Shown here piece by piece: positions 4,105 through 18,271 of a stretch of 32,224 nucleotides of DNA (position 1 is its first letter; every line of letters begins with the position of its first letter). Position numbers and translations under genes: made by a program. Origin of the DNA: a virus (Duplodnaviria > Caudoviricetes); the IMG/VR virus record IMGVR_UViG_3300025162_001865, positions 1 to 32,224 of that record. One strand, written 5' to 3'. Below the pieces are notes generated by a model. The model was not told the origin of the DNA. It did not search any database and saw nothing but the letters and a program-made list of their open reading frames with translations.

Positions 4105-4130
4105 AAAAAGGGGTTAATCACCCCTTTTTT
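4105..4130 (+). terminator. Intrinsic terminator
   Basis: aggggt-taatc-acccct followed by T run. Confidence 0.8.
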
Positions 4131-4204
4131 ATTAAACTTTAATGAAAATTTTTGATAAAAATATAAAACTGAGAGAAATTTTAAGAAACTATTAAAAAAT
4201 TATA

Positions 4205-4426
4205 ATGTATCCAGATAAATGTTATTTATTGCGATTTGTCAATAATCCTCTTAATCATAAGATTGGTACAGAGGGATTCGAAATGATTTGTCGTGATCCA
4301 GAGACACTATCAAGATTGGTGAATTCTCACAATGGAATTAAAAAAGTTAATCCAAAAAATGTATTTACTCTTGAAATAAGAACGAAATATTGTTATCAAA
4401 TATATGAATATCTTTATTTTGAATAA
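4205..4426 (+). CDS. Hypothetical protein
   Basis: 73 aa ORF in co-oriented run. Confidence 0.5.
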   Translation: MYPDKCYLLRFVNNPLNHKIGTEGFEMICRDPETLSRLVNSHNGIKKVNPKNVFTLEIRTKYCYQIYEYLYFE

Positions 4427-7719: not shown

Positions 7720-7938
7720 ATGAAGAAAATCACAACAGACAAAGAGACCTACATTAAAAAAGTAGAAACAGGAACTTGGAAACCAAACGGAAAACCTGAA
7801 TGGGATAAAAATTACGCTGGTAAGGTGAAAGCTAAAATTCCACTCAAAGGTAAAGATGAAAACGGTGATAAACGTTTTGAAGAAGTTGAAATTATAATCA
7901 AAGGATTCTTTTTCACACCATTTTCAGGACAAAGGTAA
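7720..7938 (+). CDS. Hypothetical protein
   Basis: ATG at 7720 downstream of promoter motif. Confidence 0.65.
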   Translation: MKKITTDKETYIKKVETGTWKPNGKPEWDKNYAGKVKAKIPLKGKDENGDKRFEEVEIIIKGFFFTPFSGQR

Positions 7939-7939
7939 A

Positions 7940-8162
7940 ATGCAAAAAGGAGATAAATATAAATGTATCAAAACCATCAATAATTTATTTGAATGGAATT
8001 TATTCAAAGAGGGTGATACATATGAAGTTATTCACGTTGAAGAAATAATGTGAAGAAATAATGGGAACAACTCTTGTTACTTTGAATCACATTCTATACG
8101 CAAATGAATACCTTGAGGAAGAATTGGATTCCATTAAAGAAAATTTTGAATTAGTAAAATAA
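7940..8162 (+). pseudogene. Small gene broken by a 13-bp tandem duplication
   Basis: tgaagaaataatg at 8038 and 8051; removing one copy gives a continuous ORF MQKGDKYKC...FELVK. Confidence 0.7.
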
Positions 8163-8208
8163 AATAAACTTTTTCTTTTTATCCGATTATAATAAAAATG
8201 AGATGAAA

Positions 8209-8242
8209 TTTTTTTATCTCGAACAAATTACATAATTTTGTA
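8209..8242 (+). promoter_or_regulatory. SigmaA-type promoter upstream of leader/tRNA array
   Basis: TTTTTAT-N15-TAATTTTG (8233-8240). Confidence 0.65.
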
Positions 8243-8306
8243 ATCTGAATTGGAAAAAATAGACTTTTTAAGTTAAATATATAAACAATACAAACAAAGA
8301 AATAAA

Positions 8307-8423
8307 ATGTTGATGAATATTCAAATATTAACCACACGACCTGAAACAAGGACGACAGTCACAACTACCCCAGTGGTAGAAGAGACAGCGTATGCTCCGG
8401 GTGTTGGTAAAATATTTGATTGA
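8307..8423 (+). CDS. Putative attenuator leader peptide MLMNIQILTTRPETRTTVTTTPVVEETAYAPGVGKIFD
   Basis: 38 codons; codons 9-28 only Thr/Arg/Pro/Glu/Val/Ala; many GC-ending codons; overlaps antiterminator strand. Confidence 0.8.
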   Translation: MLMNIQILTTRPETRTTVTTTPVVEETAYAPGVGKIFD

Positions 8424-8474
8424 AAATCCCCTCATCAATATAGAAAAACGAAAGTTTTTCAACCCTACACCCGG
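8397..8474 (+). promoter_or_regulatory. Putative antiterminator helix
   Basis: ccgggtgt (8397-8404) is the reverse complement of acacccgg (8467-8474), which includes the terminator 5' arm. Confidence 0.75.
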
Positions 8475-8498
8475 AATCGAAAGAAACCGGGTTTTTTT
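8469..8498 (+). terminator. Intrinsic terminator (attenuator)
   Basis: acccgg-aatcgaaagaaa-ccggg followed by 7 T. Confidence 0.85.
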
Positions 8499-8516
8499 AT
8501 GTTCTTTAAATTTCTT

Positions 8517-8620
8517 GGGTGAATTAAATGATAAGTAATCGAAGTCATGAACCGATGAAAATCATCAGGTGGCTGGTAGTCGTAGACTATTCAGTATTGG
8601 TTCAAGTCCATTTTCATCCA
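8517..8620 (+). ncRNA. tRNA-like RNA (104 nt) without a canonical anticodon arm
   Basis: gggtgaa/ttcatcc acceptor-like stem; T arm tgg-ttcaagt-cca; two internal hairpins. Confidence 0.55.
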
Positions 8621-8636
8621 CAACCATAGAATAACG

Positions 8637-8648
8637 GTTCTTTGACAT
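8637..8648 (+). promoter_or_regulatory. boxA-like antitermination element
   Basis: gttctttgacat; related gttctttaaa at 8501 and gttctttgaaa at 11629. Confidence 0.6.
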
Positions 8649-8663
8649 CTTGGAATAAAATAA

Positions 8664-8749
8664 ACTCGATTCGGCTAGAGGCTTAGGCCATCAGACTTTC
8701 AATCTGATAGAGATTTTTTCTCTCAGGGGTTCGAATCCCCTATCGAGTA
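8664..8749 (+). tRNA. tRNA-Glu(TTC) with long variable arm
   Basis: actcgat/atcgagt; tcaga-ctTTCaa-tctga; 17-nt variable region with gaga/tctc stem; agggg-ttcgaat-cccct. Confidence 0.85.
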
Positions 8750-8831
8750 CACAATCAATCTAAATTTTCAGATTCGATATAAATTATGACTATGTAATTT
8801 TTTATATATAAAAATAAAAATAAAAATAGTC

Positions 8832-9761
8832 ATGAATAAATGTTTAAATTGTGGTAAGGATGTAAAAAATAAATATTGTAATTCTAAATGTAGAAATCAA
8901 CATAAACCAACTATATATGTACCTACTCAGGAAAGTATAGATAAACAAAAAGATACGGTTTCTAAAAAGTGGAAAATTTTTTATGTTAAATGTTATAAAT
9001 GTGGAAAAGACTTTGAAATTAAAGAATTTAATGTTGAAAAACTAAAAAAAGATAAATACTATTGTTCCAGATCATGTGCAAATAGTAGAAAACACACGGT
9101 AGAAACGAAAGAAAAAATAAGATTGAAGAATAAAAATCAAGTTCCTTGGAATAAAAAAAATAAAATATTAATAAAATGTCCAGTTTGTAAAAAAGATTTT
9201 CAAATCTTACCAAAATCAAATAGAATTTATTGTTCTAAAAATTGTTATTTGAAAGATAATAATTGTTCATTTAGAAGAAAATCATCAGGTGGAATAAGAA
9301 AAGGTTCTGGAAGAGGTAAATGTGGTTGGTATAAAGGATTTTGGTCGGATAGTAGTTGGGAATTAGCTTGGATAATTTATAATATTGATCACAGAATTAT
9401 ATTTGAAAGAAATTATAAAGGATTTGAATATTGTTTTAACAGCAAAAAATATAAATTTTATCCGGATTTTAAAATAGATAGTAAATTTTATGAAATAAAG
9501 GGTTATATCGACAGTAAAAATAAATCAAAAATCGAACAATTTAATGATGAATTAATTATTATAGATAGGATAGGGATTAAACCTTATATTGAATATGTAA
9601 TAAAAAAATATGGAAAAAATTATATAGAATTATATGAAAATAATCCACATAAAATAAAAAATAAAAAATGTTTAATATGTGGAAATGAATGTATGAATAT
9701 GTATTGTTCCAGAATTTGTTCTGGGAAAGGTATTAAAAATACTACAAAAATACCAGTGTAG
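8832..9761 (+). CDS. Free-standing homing-type endonuclease, Zn-finger repeats + PD-(D/E)XK domain
   Basis: CxxC...YCSxxC repeats; SSWE...YPDF...YEIKG. Confidence 0.75.
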   Translation: MNKCLNCGKDVKNKYCNSKCRNQHKPTIYVPTQESIDKQKDTVSKKWKIFYVKCYKCGKDFEIKEFNVEKLKKDKYYCSRSCANSRKHTVETKEKIRLKNKNQVPWNKKNKILIKCPVCKKDFQILPKSNRIYCSKNCYLKDNNCSFRRKSSGGIRKGSGRGKCGWYKGFWSDSSWELAWIIYNIDHRIIFERNYKGFEYCFNSKKYKFYPDFKIDSKFYEIKGYIDSKNKSKIEQFNDELIIIDRIGIKPYIEYVIKKYGKNYIELYENNPHKIKNKKCLICGNECMNMYCSRICSGKGIKNTTKIPV

Positions 9762-9833
9762 CCGACTGAAGCTACGAACTTCAGAGATCGTAATTGGAGC
9801 TGTCAAATGTGGGTTCGAATCCCACCACTGGTT
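9752..9833 (+). tRNA. Atypical D-armless tRNA-Arg(ACG)-like
   Basis: accagtg/cactggt; only 7 nt before ctgaag-ctACGaa-cttcag; 24-nt region; gtggg-ttcgaat-cccac. Confidence 0.7.
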
Positions 9834-9839
9834 CAAAGG

Positions 9840-9908
9840 GGGGTAGTTTGGTAATATTGGGTAAGGTAAACGCGTAACTGAATGATGGTTCAATTCCATC
9901 TTACTCCA
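9840..9908 (+). ncRNA. tRNA-like RNA, acceptor + T arm, no clear anticodon arm
   Basis: ggggtag/ttactcc; gatgg-ttcaatt-ccatc; contains cgtaactg. Confidence 0.55.
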
Positions 9909-9914
9909 CATTAT

Positions 9915-9989
9915 CTGGGTGTTCCACAGATGGCTATATGGACTTGTTTCGGAGACAAGTGTTCGCGAGTTCGAATCTCGCTACCCAGA
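9915..9989 (+). tRNA. tRNA-Pro(CGG)
   Basis: ctgggtg/tacccag; cttgt-ttCGGag-acaag; gcgag-ttcgaat-ctcgc. Confidence 0.85.
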
Positions 9990-10001
9990 CAAAAAAATAA
10001 A

Positions 10002-10063
10002 CTAGGTGTAGTCCCGTAATTGTGACAATATGTCCTCTGTCAGTTCAAGTCTGACCACCTAGA
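10002..10063 (+). ncRNA. 62-nt anticodon-less mini tRNA-like RNA
   Basis: ctaggtg/cacctag; gtc-ccgtaattgt-gac; gtcag-ttcaagt-ctgac. Confidence 0.65.
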
Positions 10064-10079
10064 CAAAAAATTAATATTT

Positions 10080-10268
10080 ATGATAAATGATTATGACATA
10101 AATGAAAAAATTATAGATTCTGATGGTAAAGAATGTATAATATATGAGAAAACTTCAAATTCTATTCTTGTTCATATTGAAAAGAAAAGAAAAGAGGGTA
10201 TAAATTGTAATCAATGGTTCACCATTGAATCATTTGAAAAAAGATTTATAAAGAAAAATGATTTATAA
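10080..10268 (+). CDS. Hypothetical protein inside tRNA array
   Basis: 62 aa ORF filling the gap between tRNAs. Confidence 0.6.
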   Translation: MINDYDINEKIIDSDGKECIIYEKTSNSILVHIEKKRKEGINCNQWFTIESFEKRFIKKNDL

Positions 10269-10272
10269 AAAT

Positions 10273-10345
10273 GTTCCCGTAGTATAACGGATAAAATTTC
10301 TGACTACGGGATCAGGGGATGAGAGTTCGAATCTCTCCGGGAACA
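10273..10345 (+). tRNA. tRNA-Arg(ACG) with 8-nt anticodon loop
   Basis: gttcccg/cgggaac; tctga-ctACGgga-tcagg; gagag-ttcgaat-ctctc. Confidence 0.75.
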
Positions 10346-10351
10346 CAAAAT

Positions 10352-10427
10352 GGTGGTGTATCGTCCTAGTTTCCTAAACTAGTAAAACGTAACTGGATTG
10401 ATGTGGGTTCGAATCCCATCACCATCA
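10352..10427 (+). tRNA. Atypical D-armless tRNA-Arg(CCT)-like
   Basis: ggtggtg/caccatc; 7 nt then ctagt-ttCCTaa-actag; 20-nt region with cgtaactgga; gtggg-ttcgaat-cccat. Confidence 0.7.
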
Positions 10428-10449
10428 CAAAATGGTTAAGATACTAAAT

Positions 10450-10520
10450 GCCGGTGTCGTATAATGGTATTACAAGGCTCTTGTAAAGCTTGAACGGTGG
10501 TTCGATTCCATCCATCGGCT
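10450..10520 (+). tRNA. tRNA-Thr(TGT)
   Basis: gccggtg/catcggc; aggct-ctTGTaa-agctt; T arm. Confidence 0.88.
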
Positions 10521-10580
10521 CTAATTTCGAAAATTATTTTGGGCTCTTAAATTTTTATATATAAAAATAAAAATATAAAT

Positions 10581-11312
10581 ATGTGGAGTCAAGAAGAATT
10601 GAATAAAACAATAAAATTAGCGAAAAAGGGAATAACATATAATGAAATTGGGAAAATATTGGGAAAAACAGGACATGCTATAAAGTGTAAATTTTTAAAA
10701 AATGGTTTAATAATAACTGATTTTAAAGAAGTAAAAAAATATAAAATTGTTAAATGTTTAAATTGTGGTAATGATATAAAAGGTAGTGTTCGAAAATTTT
10801 GTAATAGTAGTTGTTCAGCAATTTATAACAATAAAAAAAGAGATATAAAAATCAATGAAAAAATAAGAGAAACATTAAAAAATCCAAAACAAATAAAAAA
10901 AATATATTGTTTAAATTGTGAAAAAGAATTATTTAATAAAAGTAGAAAATATTGTAATGGTGTATGTTTAAATGAATTTAGATATAAAAATTATATAGAA
11001 AAATGGAAAAATGGTGAAGTTGATGGAATGAGTGGTGATGATCAAATTTCAAAGTATATTAAAAAATATTTATTAATAAAATATGAATATAAGTGTTCAG
11101 AAGATGGTTGGAATAAAGTAAATCCGTTTACAAAAAAGATACCATTAGAAGTTGAACATATAGATGGTAATAATAGAAATAATAAAGAAGAAAATTTAAA
11201 ATTATTATGTCCTTGCTGTCATTCACTTACAAAAACATATAAAGGTGCAAATAGAGGTAACGGCAGACATAATAGATTAATTAGATATAGAAAAAATGCT
11301 GATGTAGTATAA
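10581..11312 (+). CDS. HNH homing endonuclease with HTH and Zn-finger repeats
   Basis: LEVEHIDGNNRNNKEENLKLLCPCCHS. Confidence 0.88.
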   Translation: MWSQEELNKTIKLAKKGITYNEIGKILGKTGHAIKCKFLKNGLIITDFKEVKKYKIVKCLNCGNDIKGSVRKFCNSSCSAIYNNKKRDIKINEKIRETLKNPKQIKKIYCLNCEKELFNKSRKYCNGVCLNEFRYKNYIEKWKNGEVDGMSGDDQISKYIKKYLLIKYEYKCSEDGWNKVNPFTKKIPLEVEHIDGNNRNNKEENLKLLCPCCHSLTKTYKGANRGNGRHNRLIRYRKNADVV

Positions 11313-11369
11313 TGGTCATTATTCGTGCCTTGTAAACATGAGATGGTGGTTCGACTCCACTCATCAGCT
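11298..11369 (+). tRNA. tRNA-Thr(TGT), second copy
   Basis: gctgatg/catcagc; cgtgc-ctTGTaa-acatg; ggtgg-ttcgact-ccact. Confidence 0.8.
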
Positions 11370-11374
11370 CAAAT

Positions 11375-11448
11375 GCCGGTGTAGTATCAATGGTCTAAAA
11401 CGCCTGATTGGTAATCAGGAAATTCGAGTTCGAATCTCGACACTGGCT
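11375..11448 (+). tRNA. tRNA-Thr(GGT)
   Basis: gccggtg/cactggc; cctga-ttGGTaa-tcagg; T arm. Confidence 0.88.
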
Positions 11449-11459
11449 CAGTTAAAAAT

Positions 11460-11545
11460 AGGACTATGGTGTAATTGGTTAAACATCCCACTCCTACAAA
11501 GTGGAGACGAGAAGTGTAATCCCGGTTCGAGTCCGGGTAGTCCTA
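11460..11545 (+). tRNA. tRNA-Val(TAC) with long variable region and C33
   Basis: aggacta/tagtcct; ccact-ccTACaa-agtgg; 16-nt variable region; cccgg-ttcgagt-ccggg. Confidence 0.78.
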
Positions 11546-11551
11546 CTACAA

Positions 11552-11626
11552 GCGATTGTAGCTCAGTTGGTTCAGAGTATCTGCCTTACAAGCAGAGGGT
11601 CCGGGGTTCGAATCCCTGCAGTCGCA
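11552..11626 (+). tRNA. tRNA-Val(TAC), canonical
   Basis: gcgattg/cagtcgc; tctgc-ctTACaa-gcaga. Confidence 0.92.
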
Positions 11627-11647
11627 CAGTTCTTTGAAAGAAAAAAT

Positions 11648-11770
11648 GGGGAAGTAGTTTAATGGATTCGTTTTCAATGATTTCAAGGCCAGAATCATTG
11701 GCGGTATTATGAATCGGGCAGAACGGTTAAATCGAGAATACTCGATGTTTGTAGGTTGAAGTCATCCACA
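11648..11770 (+). ncRNA. Structured RNA beginning like a tRNA, with a long inserted hairpin
   Basis: ggggaag-ta-gttt-aatgg start; caatgatt/aatcattg and atcgag/ctcgat stems; no matching 3' acceptor strand. Confidence 0.4.
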
Positions 11771-11773
11771 TTT

Positions 11774-11847
11774 GTTCCCTTAGCTCAACGGCTAAGAGTG
11801 TCTCCTTGACGTGGAGAAGGTTATAGGTTCGAATCCTATAGGGAACA
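11774..11847 (+). tRNA. tRNA-Val(GAC)
   Basis: gttccct/agggaac; tctcc-ttGACgt-ggaga; atagg-ttcgaat-cctat. Confidence 0.9.
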
Positions 11848-11862
11848 CAAATTAATTAAATT

Positions 11863-11937
11863 GGGGGTTGGGACTGCTAGGGTGGTCATCTCGCTTGCAC
11901 CGAGAAAAACAGAGGGTTTCGAATACCCTAACCTCCA
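11863..11937 (+). tRNA. tRNA-Ala(TGC)
   Basis: gggggtt/aacctcc with G3:U70; tctcg-ctTGCac-cgaga. Confidence 0.85.
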
Positions 11938-12007
11938 CTATTTTTTTAGAGTTCGAGTTGGAAAATTTCCACTTTTTTATATTAATATATACTTAAAAAG
12001 AAAGTAT

Positions 12008-12877
12008 ATGATGAAATGTAAAAATCCAGATTGTGGAAACGAACCAGAAGGTGAAAAAATTTATTGTTCTTTGAAATGTAGAAATATTTATGTAAATAAA
12101 TATCTAAGAGATTATGATAAAAACAGAGAATCATTAGAAAAAATAAGAATAGAATTATTATTTGATTATTTAAAAAATCCAAAACATTGTAAATTTTGTG
12201 GTGAAAAGATTCCATATGAAAAAAAGAGAAATAATTATTGTAATCAATCATGTTCGGCAAAATTTAATAATAAATTTAAAATTGGAAAAAAAACGAATTT
12301 GAGTAAAGAAGGATTAGAAAATATACTATTATCGACAAGAAAAAGATTTGGAACAGATGAATATTATTCTAATCCAAAAAAATGTTTGAATTGTGATGAT
12401 ATATTATCGTTTCAAAAAAGACATCAATTATATTGTAATTGGAATTGTAAAAAAGAATATTATTCAAAAAATAAAAACAATTATGAATTATATCATTCCT
12501 TGACTAATTTTAAATTTGAATTGAAAAAATTTAAAAATGAATTTGATTTTAGTTTAATGGAAAAATATGGTTGGTATAAAGCAAAAAATAATGGTGATAA
12601 TATAAATGGTGTAAGTAGAGATCATAAAATTTCAATAAAAGATGGATTCAGAAGATTAATCAATCCTTTATTACTTGCTCATCCATCTAATTGTGAATTA
12701 ATTTTAAATAAACACAATCAAAGTAAATGCGACAAATGTTCAATAACTATCGATGATTTATTAAGAAAGATAAAAGAATTTGATAATAAATATGGAAAAT
12801 ATTACAAAGAAGAATTAAAAACTTATATAAGTTTGGATGAATTAACAGAGTTGTATAAATTTTATTCATATAACTAG
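12008..12877 (+). CDS. HNH-like homing endonuclease with Zn-finger repeats
   Basis: CxxC..YC repeats; SRDHKISI...HPSNCELILNKHNQSK; ATG 12008 chosen because the TTG extension overlaps tRNA-Ala. Confidence 0.78.
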   Translation: MMKCKNPDCGNEPEGEKIYCSLKCRNIYVNKYLRDYDKNRESLEKIRIELLFDYLKNPKHCKFCGEKIPYEKKRNNYCNQSCSAKFNNKFKIGKKTNLSKEGLENILLSTRKRFGTDEYYSNPKKCLNCDDILSFQKRHQLYCNWNCKKEYYSKNKNNYELYHSLTNFKFELKKFKNEFDFSLMEKYGWYKAKNNGDNINGVSRDHKISIKDGFRRLINPLLLAHPSNCELILNKHNQSKCDKCSITIDDLLRKIKEFDNKYGKYYKEELKTYISLDELTELYKFYSYN

Positions 12878-12946
12878 GTGTATATCAGTTGGTAGATTAC
12901 ATGATTTGGGATCATGTGGCCGAGAGTCCGAGCCTCTCCACCTAGA
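12874..12946 (+). tRNA. tRNA-Pro(TGG)
   Basis: ctaggtg/cacctag; catga-ttTGGga-tcatg; variant T loop tccgagc. Confidence 0.85.
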
Positions 12947-12998
12947 CAATTTTTTATTTCAGTAAAACTTTATACTTTTGTAAAAATATATAGTGAAT

Positions 12999-13052
12999 AT
13001 GAAAACTAGAAAGGAAAGTGTCTTTTAGGTAAAAAATAAACTTAAAAGACAT
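12999..13052 (+). promoter_or_regulatory. uORF MKTRKESVF(TAG) with start-sequestering hairpin
   Basis: tgtcttttaggt pairs with acttaaaagaca, reaching ATG 13051. Confidence 0.6.
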
Positions 13053-13371
13053 GAAAGACAGATTAGAGTACAAAATAACCACTAGCAGGTATGTTTACAA
13101 TCGTTTAAGAAAACGTATTCTTGAAGATAATGGTGAACTTCATTGTGCAAGATGTGGATATCATGACAATGAAAACAGAACCGGTAAATATTATGGTGGT
13201 TGTGTTCGACTTGGATATCTTGGTGGTGATTACAAAAAACCAATAGAATACTGGAGTATTAGTAATCCAAACTGGAAACTTGTTTCTAAAAAAAGGAAAC
13301 AGTGGATGGTTAAAAAAGTAAAGAAAGAAGATTTTTCTTGGGTAAGACCTTCTTTCGATTTTGTTTTTTGA
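13051..13371 (+). CDS. Small basic protein (CxxCxxH; WK...RKQW)
   Basis: 106 aa, K/R rich. Confidence 0.7.
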   Translation: MKDRLEYKITTSRYVYNRLRKRILEDNGELHCARCGYHDNENRTGKYYGGCVRLGYLGGDYKKPIEYWSISNPNWKLVSKKRKQWMVKKVKKEDFSWVRPSFDFVF

Positions 13372-13382
13372 AAATAAAAAAT

Positions 13383-13437
13383 ATGAAAAAGAAAGGAGAT
13401 TTTCATTAGGTGTTATAAAAAATAATACCAATGAAAA
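13383..13437 (+). promoter_or_regulatory. uORF MKKKGDFH(TAG) with start-sequestering hairpin
   Basis: ttttcatt-a-ggtgttat pairs with ataatacc-aatgaaaa, covering ATG 13431. Confidence 0.6.
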
Positions 13438-13670
13438 TGAAAATAAACAGAAAGAGGTTAGAGAATGCTCTAACTAGCAAAGAATTTAAAATTTACTGGA
13501 AAGGTATTGAACCTTATCCAGAATGTTTTTGTACTACCCATAAAAGATGTAAAAGACCAAGACATGGTTTAAGACCATATCACAACAAAGCTGGAATGTG
13601 TAGATATGGAAACTCACATAAGTCTTGGAAAAATTACAGAAAAACTCAATATCGAAATATTAATATATAA
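13431..13670 (+). CDS. Small basic protein (SWKNYRKTQY)
   Basis: 79 aa, K/R rich, Cys/His cluster. Confidence 0.7.
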   Translation: MKMKINRKRLENALTSKEFKIYWKGIEPYPECFCTTHKRCKRPRHGLRPYHNKAGMCRYGNSHKSWKNYRKTQYRNINI

Positions 13671-13685
13671 AAAGAAAACGATAGA

Positions 13686-14192
13686 TTGATTCAATTTATT
13701 AAAACCACAATACAAGAGTTTTTAAATGAAAAACATCAACAAAATAATTTTTTGAAATGGTTTGGTAATAGTAAAGTTGTTGATAAAAATGGATATCCAT
13801 TAGATGTTTATCATGGTTCACAATCTGAATTTAGTGAGTTTGATGGTGATTCTTATTTTACTGACGATTATATGAACGCGGATGGATATGCCGGGGGTGA
13901 ATATGTATATGAGGTTTATTTGTCGATAAAAAATCCATTGGTAATAGATGCAAATGGTAAAAAGTGGGATGATATTGAAACCCCTTATGGAACAAGTACA
14001 GGAGAAGTTGTTGGAAATGTAGATAGAAAAAAATATGATGGTGTAATATTCAACAATATAAAAGATAATTGGATTGATGATGTAGATTATCAAGACCCAT
14101 CAATTGTTTATGTTACATTTTCATCAAATCAAATCAAATCAATTGAAAATGATGGAACTTGGGATGTTGCAGATAATGATATTTATTCCTAA
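13686..14192 (+). CDS. ADP-ribosyltransferase-like (ART-PolyVal-like) protein
   Basis: WFGNSKVVD...P..VYHGS...FD...YFT...YEVYL.IKNPL...YDGVI...NQIKS pattern; TTG start. Confidence 0.7.
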   Translation: MIQFIKTTIQEFLNEKHQQNNFLKWFGNSKVVDKNGYPLDVYHGSQSEFSEFDGDSYFTDDYMNADGYAGGEYVYEVYLSIKNPLVIDANGKKWDDIETPYGTSTGEVVGNVDRKKYDGVIFNNIKDNWIDDVDYQDPSIVYVTFSSNQIKSIENDGTWDVADNDIYS

Positions 14193-14195
14193 TAT

Positions 14196-14267
14196 GCTGG
14201 TGTAGTTCAGTAGGTAGAATGAGGCTCTCGTAAAGCTTAGACGATGGTTCGAACCCATTCATCAGCT
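14196..14267 (+). tRNA. tRNA-Thr(CGT)
   Basis: gctggtg/catcagc; aggct-ctCGTaa-agctt; gatgg-ttcgaac-ccatt. Confidence 0.88.
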
Positions 14268-14332
14268 CATGTTTTTTTATTTCAAGAAATTCAATTATCT
14301 TTGTATTGAATTAAAAGTAAAGAAGCAATAAT

Positions 14333-14569
14333 ATGGATTATAGAAAAGAATTTACTAAAAAGACGGGTGAAAATCCTAATGTACCGGGCAACTCATACCA
14401 TGATTTTAAACAAACTTATGTTGAATATATAGAACTCACTCTTAAAGATTTGGAGGAACTGATTATGGCACAAGATGAGTATATTCAATATTTAGAAAAT
14501 CCTTTGGATTTAGGACATGGACAAAAACTTATTAACAAAATTAAAAAACTTAAAACTAAGATAACTTGA
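14333..14569 (+). CDS. Hypothetical protein
   Basis: 78 aa ORF after TAnnTTTG promoter. Confidence 0.65.
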   Translation: MDYRKEFTKKTGENPNVPGNSYHDFKQTYVEYIELTLKDLEELIMAQDEYIQYLENPLDLGHGQKLINKIKKLKTKIT

Positions 14570-16860: not shown

Positions 16861-17604
16861 ATGGATAATAGAATAATATGGATTTATGGTTTAATTGACC
16901 CAAGAGATAATGAAGTTAAATATGTCGGAAAAACTTTTAGATTAGAACAAAGATTCAAAGACCATTTAACTGAAAAAAAGGTAAATACATTAAAAACTGC
17001 TTGGATTAAAAAATTGAAAAAATTGAATTTGATTCCAGAATTGTTTATTTTAGAAGAAACTAATACTAAAGAATGTGATTTGTTAGAAATTTATTGGATT
17101 AGTCAAATGAAAAGCTGGGGGTTCAATTTGAAGAATATGACTAAGGGTGGTGATGGTTCGTATGGTGTTAAACCTTGGAATAAAGGATTAAAAAGTGTTT
17201 TTCATCACAGTGATGAATCAAAAAAGAAAATGAGTGAAAAAAGAAAGGGAAAGGAACTTACTTGGTTGAAAGACAGAAAAATATCAGATGATGAAAAAAG
17301 AAAAATGAGTGAATATAGAAAAGGAAGAAAATTAGGAAAATATAAGAGTAATGGTAATTATAAGAAAGTATATTGTTATGACACGATAGGAAATCTTATA
17401 AAAATTTATAAATCCGGGAAAGATACAGAAAATGATGGATTTGATTCTGGTATCGTTTCAAAAGTTTGTAGAAAAATTAACAAAACTCACAAAGGTTATA
17501 TATTTTCATTAATTGAAATAAAAAATTTCAATCCAAGTGATTATGTCAAAAATGTTTGGAAATTTGGAAATAAAAAGAAAGGAACAGAAAATGGAAACAA
17601 TTAA
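16861..17604 (+). CDS. GIY-YIG-like homing endonuclease with NUMOD3/NUMOD1-type repeats
   Basis: WIYGL.DPR...KYVGKT; E.YWI; N.T.GGDG; HSDESKKKMSE repeats; C-terminal VYCYD..GNLIK. Confidence 0.82.
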   Translation: MDNRIIWIYGLIDPRDNEVKYVGKTFRLEQRFKDHLTEKKVNTLKTAWIKKLKKLNLIPELFILEETNTKECDLLEIYWISQMKSWGFNLKNMTKGGDGSYGVKPWNKGLKSVFHHSDESKKKMSEKRKGKELTWLKDRKISDDEKRKMSEYRKGRKLGKYKSNGNYKKVYCYDTIGNLIKIYKSGKDTENDGFDSGIVSKVCRKINKTHKGYIFSLIEIKNFNPSDYVKNVWKFGNKKKGTENGNN

Positions 17605-18271
17605 AATAGAAATAAGAGCATCCGAGGGTGGAAATGATTCTAAATTATTGGTTAAAGATTTAACTGATATTTATACAAAATCATGTCGTAATAAAAACTT
17701 CAGTTATAAAATTGAGGAAAGAGATGGTTTTGCTTCAATATGAATTACAGGAAATGGTATTAAATCGTATTTTGGTAATGAAAGTGGATCTCATTGTTTT
17801 GTAAGAGTTCCGCCAACGGAAAAGAATGGTAGAGTCCAGACCAGTTTCGTTACCGTTGCAATTATGAATCCTGAGGTCAATACAGATTTCCAGTTGAATC
17901 ATAAAGAGATAGTGAAGCAATATACCTGTTCACGCGGAAATGGTGGTCAAAACGTAAATAGATTGAAAACTTGTGTGGTTTTAACTCATATACCAACCGG
18001 AATAATGGTGAGATCTGAAGAAACTAGAAATCAGGGTAAAAATGAAGAATTAGCTTATAAAAGATTGTATGAAAAATTAAAATCTATTGAAGATAAGAAA
18101 AATTATGAAAAGAATAAAGATTATCGTAATAATCAGATTGGAAATGGAAGTAGAGGTGGTCAAAAAAGGAGAACTTATCGAATAAGAGAAGATATAGTAT
18201 TAGACCACATTACTGGAAAAACTTGTCGATGGAAAGATATATTAAAAGGTAAAATAGAATTACTTTTTTAA
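17591..18271 (+). CDS. Class I peptide chain release factor-like (PxT, GGQ), no domain 1, in-frame TGA at 17741
   Basis: IEIRASEGG; ESGSH..VRVPPTEKNGRVQTS..TVA; GNGGQNVNR; THIPTG; RTY; 226 codons if TGA is read through. Confidence 0.88.

Follow-up and report, generated by a model that had tools for sequence, protein, structure and literature searches.

A probable leader-peptide attenuator with codons matched to the downstream tRNA array of a phage

Introduction

Leader-peptide attenuators of the thrL, ilvGMEDA, trpL and hisL type combine a short open reading frame (ORF) and clustered control codons (for several amino acids in the multivalent ones) with alternative 1:2, 2:3 and 3:4 RNA pairings; in the thrL/ilvGMEDA type, an intrinsic terminator follows and the stall site lies immediately 5' of the antiterminator strand. 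The E. coli pheM-pheST attenuator applies leader-peptide control to the translation supply chain, sensing charged tRNA for one amino acid with a synthetase as its output. Here we analyse a 32,224-nucleotide Caudoviricetes virus record (IMG/VR IMGVR_UViG_3300025162_001865), termed the window, with all coordinates counted on that whole 32-kb stretch. In it, a 38-codon leader ORF precedes an array of tRNA genes, and the evidence below makes it highly probable that this leader is a codon-family-specific, ribosome-coupled transcription attenuator placed before a tRNA block for the same six amino acids. The proposed attenuator shares this layout, with 2:3 and 3:4 pairings predicted by folding and a candidate 1:2 pairing, and would work like the multivalent thr/ilv leaders, but is no member of those families: the Rfam Thr, His, Leu and Trp leader families give no match up to E 5, and the downstream genes are tRNAs. 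Unlike thrL/ilvGMEDA-type leaders, it would control tRNA genes and not biosynthetic enzymes, its six amino acids belong to unrelated pathways, and several parallel phage modules partition the code; the contrast with pheM-pheST is one of six amino acids against one, and of tRNA against synthetase.

T-box riboswitches likewise use tRNA status to choose between terminator and antiterminator, binding uncharged tRNA directly (PMC4695836), whereas the phage codons sit in a conserved reading frame; this and the lack of an Rfam T-box match in 7900-14500 led us to reject a T-box here. TrcR-repressed long tRNA arrays carry direct repeats, bound by the repressor, over their promoter. The Anabaena trn operon is a long tRNA array that translation stress induces and that is regulated together with rtcB; as in the phage array, HNH genes feature in its neighbourhood (PMC8421152, PMC10272220). 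Unlike the phage attenuator, the Anabaena array is described in PMC8421152 as governed by a repressor at promoter repeats and not amino-acid specific, and the main text of that article makes no mention of attenuation or a leader. It has long been asked why phages have tRNA genes, and one proposal is that they counter host tRNA depletion (PMC10264068); this supplies a reason for on-demand phage tRNAs, while the accessible text of the source describes no regulation and its main text makes no mention of attenuation, leader or promoter. A literature search covering titles and abstract openings in an incomplete collection found no leader attenuation of tRNA genes.

Leader codons match the downstream tRNA array

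A sequence-only reading of this locus had proposed a leader-peptide attenuator whose codons match the downstream tRNA set, a proposal now supported by conservation, covariation and modelled stalling. The unannotated ORF is present as claimed, and its central codons are indeed limited to six amino acids:

8307-8423, + strand: leader ORF, 38 codons then TGA, with an A-rich start context that lacks a Shine-Dalgarno motif and has A at -3 and -6
8331-8390, + strand: control codons 9-28, exclusively Thr, Arg, Pro, Glu, Val and Ala, with 14 different codons

These residues make up 27% of codons in the window ORFs, a background against which a 20-codon run from the set has p about 7e-11; just 2 of 38,760 possible six-residue sets give an equally long run. 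Taking the whole leader with no segment chosen, 23 of 37 codons fall in the set (p 7e-6). ARAGORN makes 13 calls in the array, 11 of them with a clear anticodon (Thr x4, Val x3, Pro x2, Glu and Ala); 14 anticodon-bearing tRNAs had been counted earlier, and the remaining three are atypical Arg genes. Codons 9-28 are more diverse than expected (14 different codons vs 9.7-10.9, p 0.0005-0.01) and exactly match 8 of the 11 array anticodons (p 0.03-0.09). The match by amino acid is firm; the codon-specific pairing with array anticodons that had also been proposed is weak at these values. One-to-one tuning is rejected as a general rule, with p < 0.05 in only 1 of 13 other leader-terminator-tRNA modules: the orthologue of this one (module m4) in the related phage G005, which alone shows both the codon-diversity and the exact-anticodon effects. 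CCG at codon 31 is likewise rejected as a control codon, as it lies inside the antiterminator strand; in ribosome-masked folds a ribosome there covers that strand and termination is favoured.

Leaders covary with their arrays in related phages

G005, a 211-kb relative, shares synteny with the window and carries five leader-terminator-tRNA modules that together cover all 20 amino acids:

G005 modules: His/Lys/Phe/Ser/Trp; Gln/Asn/Ile/Met; Tyr/Leu; Thr/Arg/Pro/Glu/Val/Ala; Gly/Met/Asp/Cys/Arg

Here tRNA clusters were listed first and the upstream DNA then inspected; four modules were found mechanically and the fifth, whose leader ORF extends through the terminator, by reading the sequence. A complete 519-kb genome, G006, analysed in its tRNA-bearing regions, partitions the genetic code differently, with nested poly-Gln and poly-Lys leaders, each immediately 5' of the matching tRNA block (four Gln, five Lys). 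The covariation of leader codons with array content expected of such an attenuator is observed: the true leader-array pairing ranks 1/120 in G005, 1/120 in G006, 1/2 in G002 and 1/2 in G001 (unfiltered ARAGORN sets; same for the whole leader, codons 2 to k or the last 12 codons), and with 11 modules pooled, none of 200,000 shuffles did as well. Kinship among the phages makes their modules less than fully independent, which leaves the within-genome pairing tests unaffected.

Matched codons also cluster by position. Across 13 modules, where a matched share of 29-35% is expected over these positions, 119 of 143 codons (83%) are matched at 4-14 codons before the antiterminator strand (offsets -14 to -4), against 50/104 further upstream than offset -14 and a background-level 32/123 at or after the strand (offsets 0 to +12). 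Arginine is split by codon, with AGA before TCT arrays and CGA and AGG before ACG/CCT arrays; 7 of 8 Arg codons are readable by their own array, vs 4.9 expected.

Two neighbouring arrangements were also seen in these genomes. In G005, a ribosomal protein L7/L12 gene (L487, 16045-16422) lies between the Gln/Asn/Ile/Met attenuator and its tRNAs. In G006, a Val/His/Leu-rich leader and terminator (L491, about 4130-4260) stand ~1.8 kb before the first tRNA, with none directly behind.

Conservation of the leader

An antiterminator-plus-terminator pattern search hit 21 viral and 96 metagenome stretches, giving 87 distinct sites including the window. tRNAs follow at 36 of these, and a short ORF crosses the antiterminator at 35 of the 36, the remaining one being cut by a contig end; the sites without tRNAs comprise 44 GC-rich ones and 7 others, three of which end within 332 bases. 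Six loci are orthologous to the window leader (L455, L390, L431, L479, the partial L392, and L366, which is G005), and those of sufficient length run into Glu/Arg/Pro/Thr/Ala/Val arrays. Over 18,496 bases L456 does not differ from the window, so it is not counted as independent.

The leader is conserved: its frame is kept in the five complete orthologues, the sole length change being a one-codon indel, and the rare codons CGA, AGG, GTC, ACC, GTG and GAG are retained in all five. Amino-acid changes exceed synonymous changes in all four pairwise comparisons with the frame intact, and the residue changes fall mostly within the six-residue set. At conserved residues, synonymous change between the window and G005 affects 4 of 24 leader codons, vs 37% in protein genes (p 0.03; 15 of 33 ORFs have an orthologue in G005 and form this comparison). 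Because amino-acid changes outnumber synonymous ones and the synonymous rate lies below that of the neighbours, the pattern points to constraint acting on leader codons and RNA and not on protein.

Other searches returned little. Comparison of 8200-8800 with 50,697 GenBank phages by blastn gave no match, and none of 119 viral loci found with a pattern from the leader's 3' codons is a leader before a tRNA array. A looser triple pattern hit 120 loci, of which three distinct sites are leaders before tRNAs (L127, and L139/L192/L208 as two sequences, plus one match inside a tRNA array). Aligning the leader to viral contigs returned G005 as the sole match. The 79-amino-acid ORF at 13431 matched 2 loci; one of these matches, in G004, is weak, though a tRNA array lies next to it.

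Predicted attenuator structures

The leader and the interval behind it contain the following elements:

8331-8343, + strand: predicted strand 1 (anti-antiterminator), pairing with 8397-8408 in fold predictions if the leader is untranslated
8397-8408, + strand: antiterminator strand, codons 31-34, pairing with 8461-8475
8432-8441, + strand: 10-nt complement of the start region 8307-8316, both arms kept in orthologues
8443-8460, + strand: hairpin separating stop codon and terminator; a comparison of 7 loci shows compensatory changes in two of its pairs
8469-8498, + strand: intrinsic terminator with GC stem, internal loop, tetraloop and 7 T; one compensatory pair

As first noted from the sequence, 8397-8404 and 8467-8474 are exact reverse complements, and in predicted folds the antiterminator and intrinsic terminator are mutually exclusive, with one strand in common. 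The hairpin at 8443-8460 may be a pause hairpin or site for polymerase, and pairing of 8432-8441 with the start region would block or limit re-initiation. A predicted terminator lies at 8469-8498; its description as strong does not hold, since with an internal loop and -11.3 kcal/mol it is moderate, towards the low end of 21 modules (-9.3 to -17.5 kcal/mol), and a strict terminator scanner run on the window did not list it. The leader region folds with z -4.8 (0 of 200 shuffles equally stable), and the antiterminator duplex has -20.3 kcal/mol (shuffle p 0.01). The antiterminator core is present by search construction or orthology in 13 of the 21 folded modules; the other 8 were found via tRNA clusters, and for 6 of these 8 the duplex between leader and terminator reaches a shuffle p of 0.01 or below.

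Folding was repeated with ribosome-masked segments, the mask reaching 12 nt from the first nucleotide of the A-site codon (an assumed footprint length). In full-length folds the window terminator has a probability of 1.0 when the leader is untranslated; this drops to 0.0-0.4 while the A site lies within codons 4-27 and returns to 0.9-1.0 once it reaches codon 28. In the model, a ribosome stalled within codons 4-27 thus frees the antiterminator and opens the terminator, and the switch edge falls at the end of the matched codon run; masking by 9 nt instead of 12 shifts it to codon 29. When transcripts are ended before the terminator 3' arm, the 5' arm of 20 of the 21 modules is captured, with a probability of at least 0.7 at most control codons, for as long as the ribosome stays clear of the antiterminator; this modelled behaviour is what a kinetic antiterminator would produce. 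For the poly-Lys leader of G006, capture reaches just 0.4.

Promoter-like motifs

Two putative promoter elements precede the leader:

8233-8240, + strand: Bacteroidota-type -7 promoter-like octamer TAnnTTTG, putative function
8262-8284, + strand: phage-type promoter-like motif (GACT, 9-14 nt, ATATATA), putative function

The octamer had been noted as a promoter-like site. It is present, and of 5 orthologues examined, L455, L390 and G005 keep it and L431 and L479 lack it. However, such octamers are frequent (60 window matches), and the motif shows no clear enrichment before ORFs (7 sense vs 3 antisense). The GACT...ATATATA motif occurs 4 times in the window vs 0.5 in shuffles, is conserved in every orthologue reaching that far upstream, and in G005 has 5 of its 8 matches before the five leaders; it may be a common promoter of leader modules. 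Inside the array, promoter-like motifs occur at 8788 (which would serve the 8832-9761 ORF) and 12973 (TAnnTTTG).

Similar layouts in bacterial genomes

The antiterminator-plus-terminator pattern occurs at 58 loci in 185,579 species genomes; 41 were examined, and 17 further Pseudomonas matches were left out. Nine of the examined loci are labelled Bacteroidota, and these have a short ORF across the antiterminator in 8/9 cases and downstream tRNAs in 6/9, the latter being found at 0 of the 32 other examined loci. Three Bacteroidota loci (L516, L517 and L548) place the layout before TROVE/Ro60 genes, one with RtcB beyond, and RtcB and tRNAs lie further downstream of these TROVE/Ro60 attenuators. 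Judged by eye, the Bacteroidota leaders are of mixed composition. Host translation-stress leaders of this Bacteroidota type are the likely origin of the phage modules, which would then have specialised. The phage host itself is likely a Bacteroidota, because genes of the window and G005 lack Shine-Dalgarno motifs (3 of 32 window genes vs 1 in the control window; 10 of 239 G005 genes vs 13), as Bacteroidetes genes do (PMC6847099).

A comparable layout was noted in Acidobacteriota (L505, L523, L540 and L552), where short Thr/Lys/Arg-rich leaders precede an aspartate-semialdehyde dehydrogenase-like gene, named by eye.

Proposed mechanism and alternative explanations

The best reading of the locus is that trp/thr-type attenuation has been reused as feedback on tRNA supply. 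A ribosome reaching codon 28-29 or beyond would cover 8397-8408, and the terminator would form; a ribosome held at codons up to 27-28 would leave 8397-8408 free to pair with 8461-8475, blocking the terminator, and slow decoding of the matched codons would in this way admit RNA polymerase to the tRNA genes. We infer that the leader is translated and that transcription and translation are coupled. The signal would be the supply of charged tRNA for the six families and the output more of the same tRNAs, so the loop would be one of negative feedback. The window module would be one of about five jointly monitoring all 20 amino acids, as in G005, and these phages likely make each tRNA block only when ribosomes slow on its codons. 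The cause of a shortage is left unspecified by the sequence, because a ribosome cannot distinguish cleaved, diluted and uncharged tRNA. Host anti-phage nucleases are a tentative candidate for the selective trigger; that the system is a jumbo-phage tRNA homeostat, its roughly five leaders splitting the code and each raising its own tRNAs, evolved against tRNA destruction by such nucleases, is possible though somewhat doubtful. If feedback on tRNA supply is correct, a decoding-speed switch on cognate codons provides phage tRNAs when they are needed; this favours replenishment, and not constant codon compensation, as their role. Leader-peptide attenuation would then extend to tRNA genes as a regulated output, and each of the five leaders in a single genome would show which tRNA families become scarce in infection or under a defence nuclease.

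Several results count against this account. In full-length equilibrium folds, seven other modules hold the terminator at a probability of at least 0.8 throughout the control codons, their switch being visible only in folds of transcripts ended before the 3' arm, and 4 of the 5 window orthologues folded fall mostly to 0.5-0.7. In the short-transcript fold the untranslated window leader is antiterminated (0.98) and five orthologues are not (0.01-0.13). The poly-Lys leader of G006 forms no significant duplex (p 0.95) and the poly-Gln leader has p 0.13, and the main antiterminator stem is nearly invariant across orthologues, so covariation is no test of it. Exact codon-anticodon matching is weak over the modules: just 4 of 10 Ser cases have a codon that an anticodon of the same array can read, and one of two Arg codons in L370 is unread by its array. 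Conversely, some array calls have no control codon, namely Arg-TCG, Leu-GAG and Asp-GTC in G005 m1 and Leu-CAG, Leu-TAG and Val-AAC in G005 m5. The 35-tRNA cluster of G004 lacks a leader of comparable kind, and the motifs at 8788 and 12973 may let distal tRNAs of the window bypass the switch.

Among the alternatives, a general ribosome-stress attenuator, opened by any stall (antibiotic, ribosome damage or toxin) with the codon match secondary or inherited, is unlikely in our judgement. It would fit the mixed-composition leaders that stand before TROVE/Ro60, RtcB and tRNA arrays in Bacteroidota genomes, the modelled opening of the switch by stalls at the unmatched codons 4-8, and the general translation stress that drives the Anabaena tRNA array (PMC8421152); it leaves unexplained why five leaders each match their own array, why G006 uses a different partition and why matched codons cluster by position. 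General-stress opening can coexist with feedback on tRNA supply as a side response. Still less likely is a sensor of amino-acid starvation, in which uncharged tRNA would be read as in the thr/ilv leaders and tRNA loss would be irrelevant in nature. Uncharged tRNA is the signal of the classical leaders, and the phage match does hold by amino acid more than by codon. Yet the output is tRNA and not biosynthetic enzymes, which disfavours starvation sensing because making tRNA would do little against a lack of amino acids; moreover, the six residues have no common biosynthetic pathway, and Arg codons are split among modules in step with isoacceptors.

A further alternative dispenses with the switch: the leader would either encode a functional small protein or act as structural RNA that is not translated, termination would be constitutive, and internal promoters would drive the tRNAs. 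The promoter-like motifs within the array and the modules whose equilibrium folds always terminate are in keeping with this. We regard it as very improbable, given a frame that is kept while amino-acid changes outnumber synonymous ones in every comparison, residue changes mostly confined to the six-residue set, and residue content that tracks the array.

The tRNA array and its inserted ORFs

The array region contains the following features:

8517-8623, + strand: tRNA-like element without a clear anticodon (fold z -2.75; kept in L366)
8664-8750, + strand: tRNA-Glu(TTC) with a long variable arm (ARAGORN, Rfam, fold)
8832-9761, + strand: cysteine-rich ORF inside the array, likely a homing endonuclease (best Pfam match YacG, E 0.005)
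9752-9834, + strand: atypical tRNA-Arg(ACG)-like RNA without a normal D arm (anticodon loop kept, compensatory stem change in L366)
9838-9909, + strand: degenerate tRNA-like element (Rfam 20 bits, under cut-off)
9915-9990, + strand: tRNA-Pro(CGG) (ARAGORN, Rfam)
10001-10066, + strand: degenerate tRNA-like element with acceptor and T arm (fold, orthologue comparison)
10273-10346, + strand: tRNA-Arg(ACG) with an 8-nt anticodon loop (ARAGORN, orthologues, run contigs)
10352-10427, + strand: atypical tRNA-Arg(CCT)-like RNA without a normal D arm (same build as 9752-9834)
10450-10521, + strand: tRNA-Thr(TGT) (ARAGORN, Rfam)
10581-11312, + strand: HNH endonuclease-like ORF inside the array (HNH_3 E 0.002, under cut-off)
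11298-11627, + strand: tRNA-Thr(TGT), tRNA-Thr(GGT), tRNA-Val(TAC; long variable arm, C33) and tRNA-Val(TAC) (ARAGORN, Rfam)
11774-11938, + strand: tRNA-Val(GAC) and tRNA-Ala(TGC) (ARAGORN; Ala folds as a cloverleaf and is absent from the Rfam list)
11861-12877, + strand: third cysteine-rich, putative endonuclease-like ORF in the array (weak treble-clef match only)
12874-12947, + strand: tRNA-Pro(TGG) (ARAGORN, Rfam)
14196-14268, + strand: tRNA-Thr(CGT), 3' of the TAnnTTTG site (12973) and three ORFs

The last of these, tRNA-Thr(CGT), may be transcribed separately; an ART-PolyVal domain gene (13686-14192) lies within the array span immediately 5' of it. The two Arg-like RNAs at 9752-9834 and 10352-10427 have retained 7-nt anticodon loops (ACG and CCT, respectively), and their stems show compensatory changes in orthologues. 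At 10273-10346 the anticodon loop has 8 nt in the window and 7 nt in three orthologues; the 8-nt loop is the same in contigs of runs X1, X2 and X3, a comparison covering 9740-10560 in which X1 may be the source of the window record. This gene is possibly either a decaying or a frameshifting tRNA.

RNAs built like these two Arg-like RNAs, in which a short linker leads directly into the anticodon arm and a D-loop-like motif follows that arm, also occur in L483, L480, L487, L364, L370 and L431. A scan gave 10 distinct sequences, 9 of them of that build, with ACG, CCT, TCT, GAT or TAT loops; in G005 and L370 the anticodon lies within the module's amino-acid set, and in the L431 copy the linker has changed in a paired manner with the segment behind the anticodon arm. 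The long variable arms on tRNA-Glu (8664-8750) and tRNA-Val (11460-11546) are kept in orthologues.

Source DNA and surrounding genes

DNA near-identical to the window is listed in lake and freshwater DNA runs; no RNA run is among the datasets listed with such DNA. The window has 27% GC, and family searches identify a methylase, a split release-factor-like gene, Hsp20, an AAA ATPase and endonuclease-like ORFs. The release-factor-like gene (16861-18271) is divided into two ORFs, carrying PCRF and RF-1 domains, and adjoins a GIY-YIG endonuclease.

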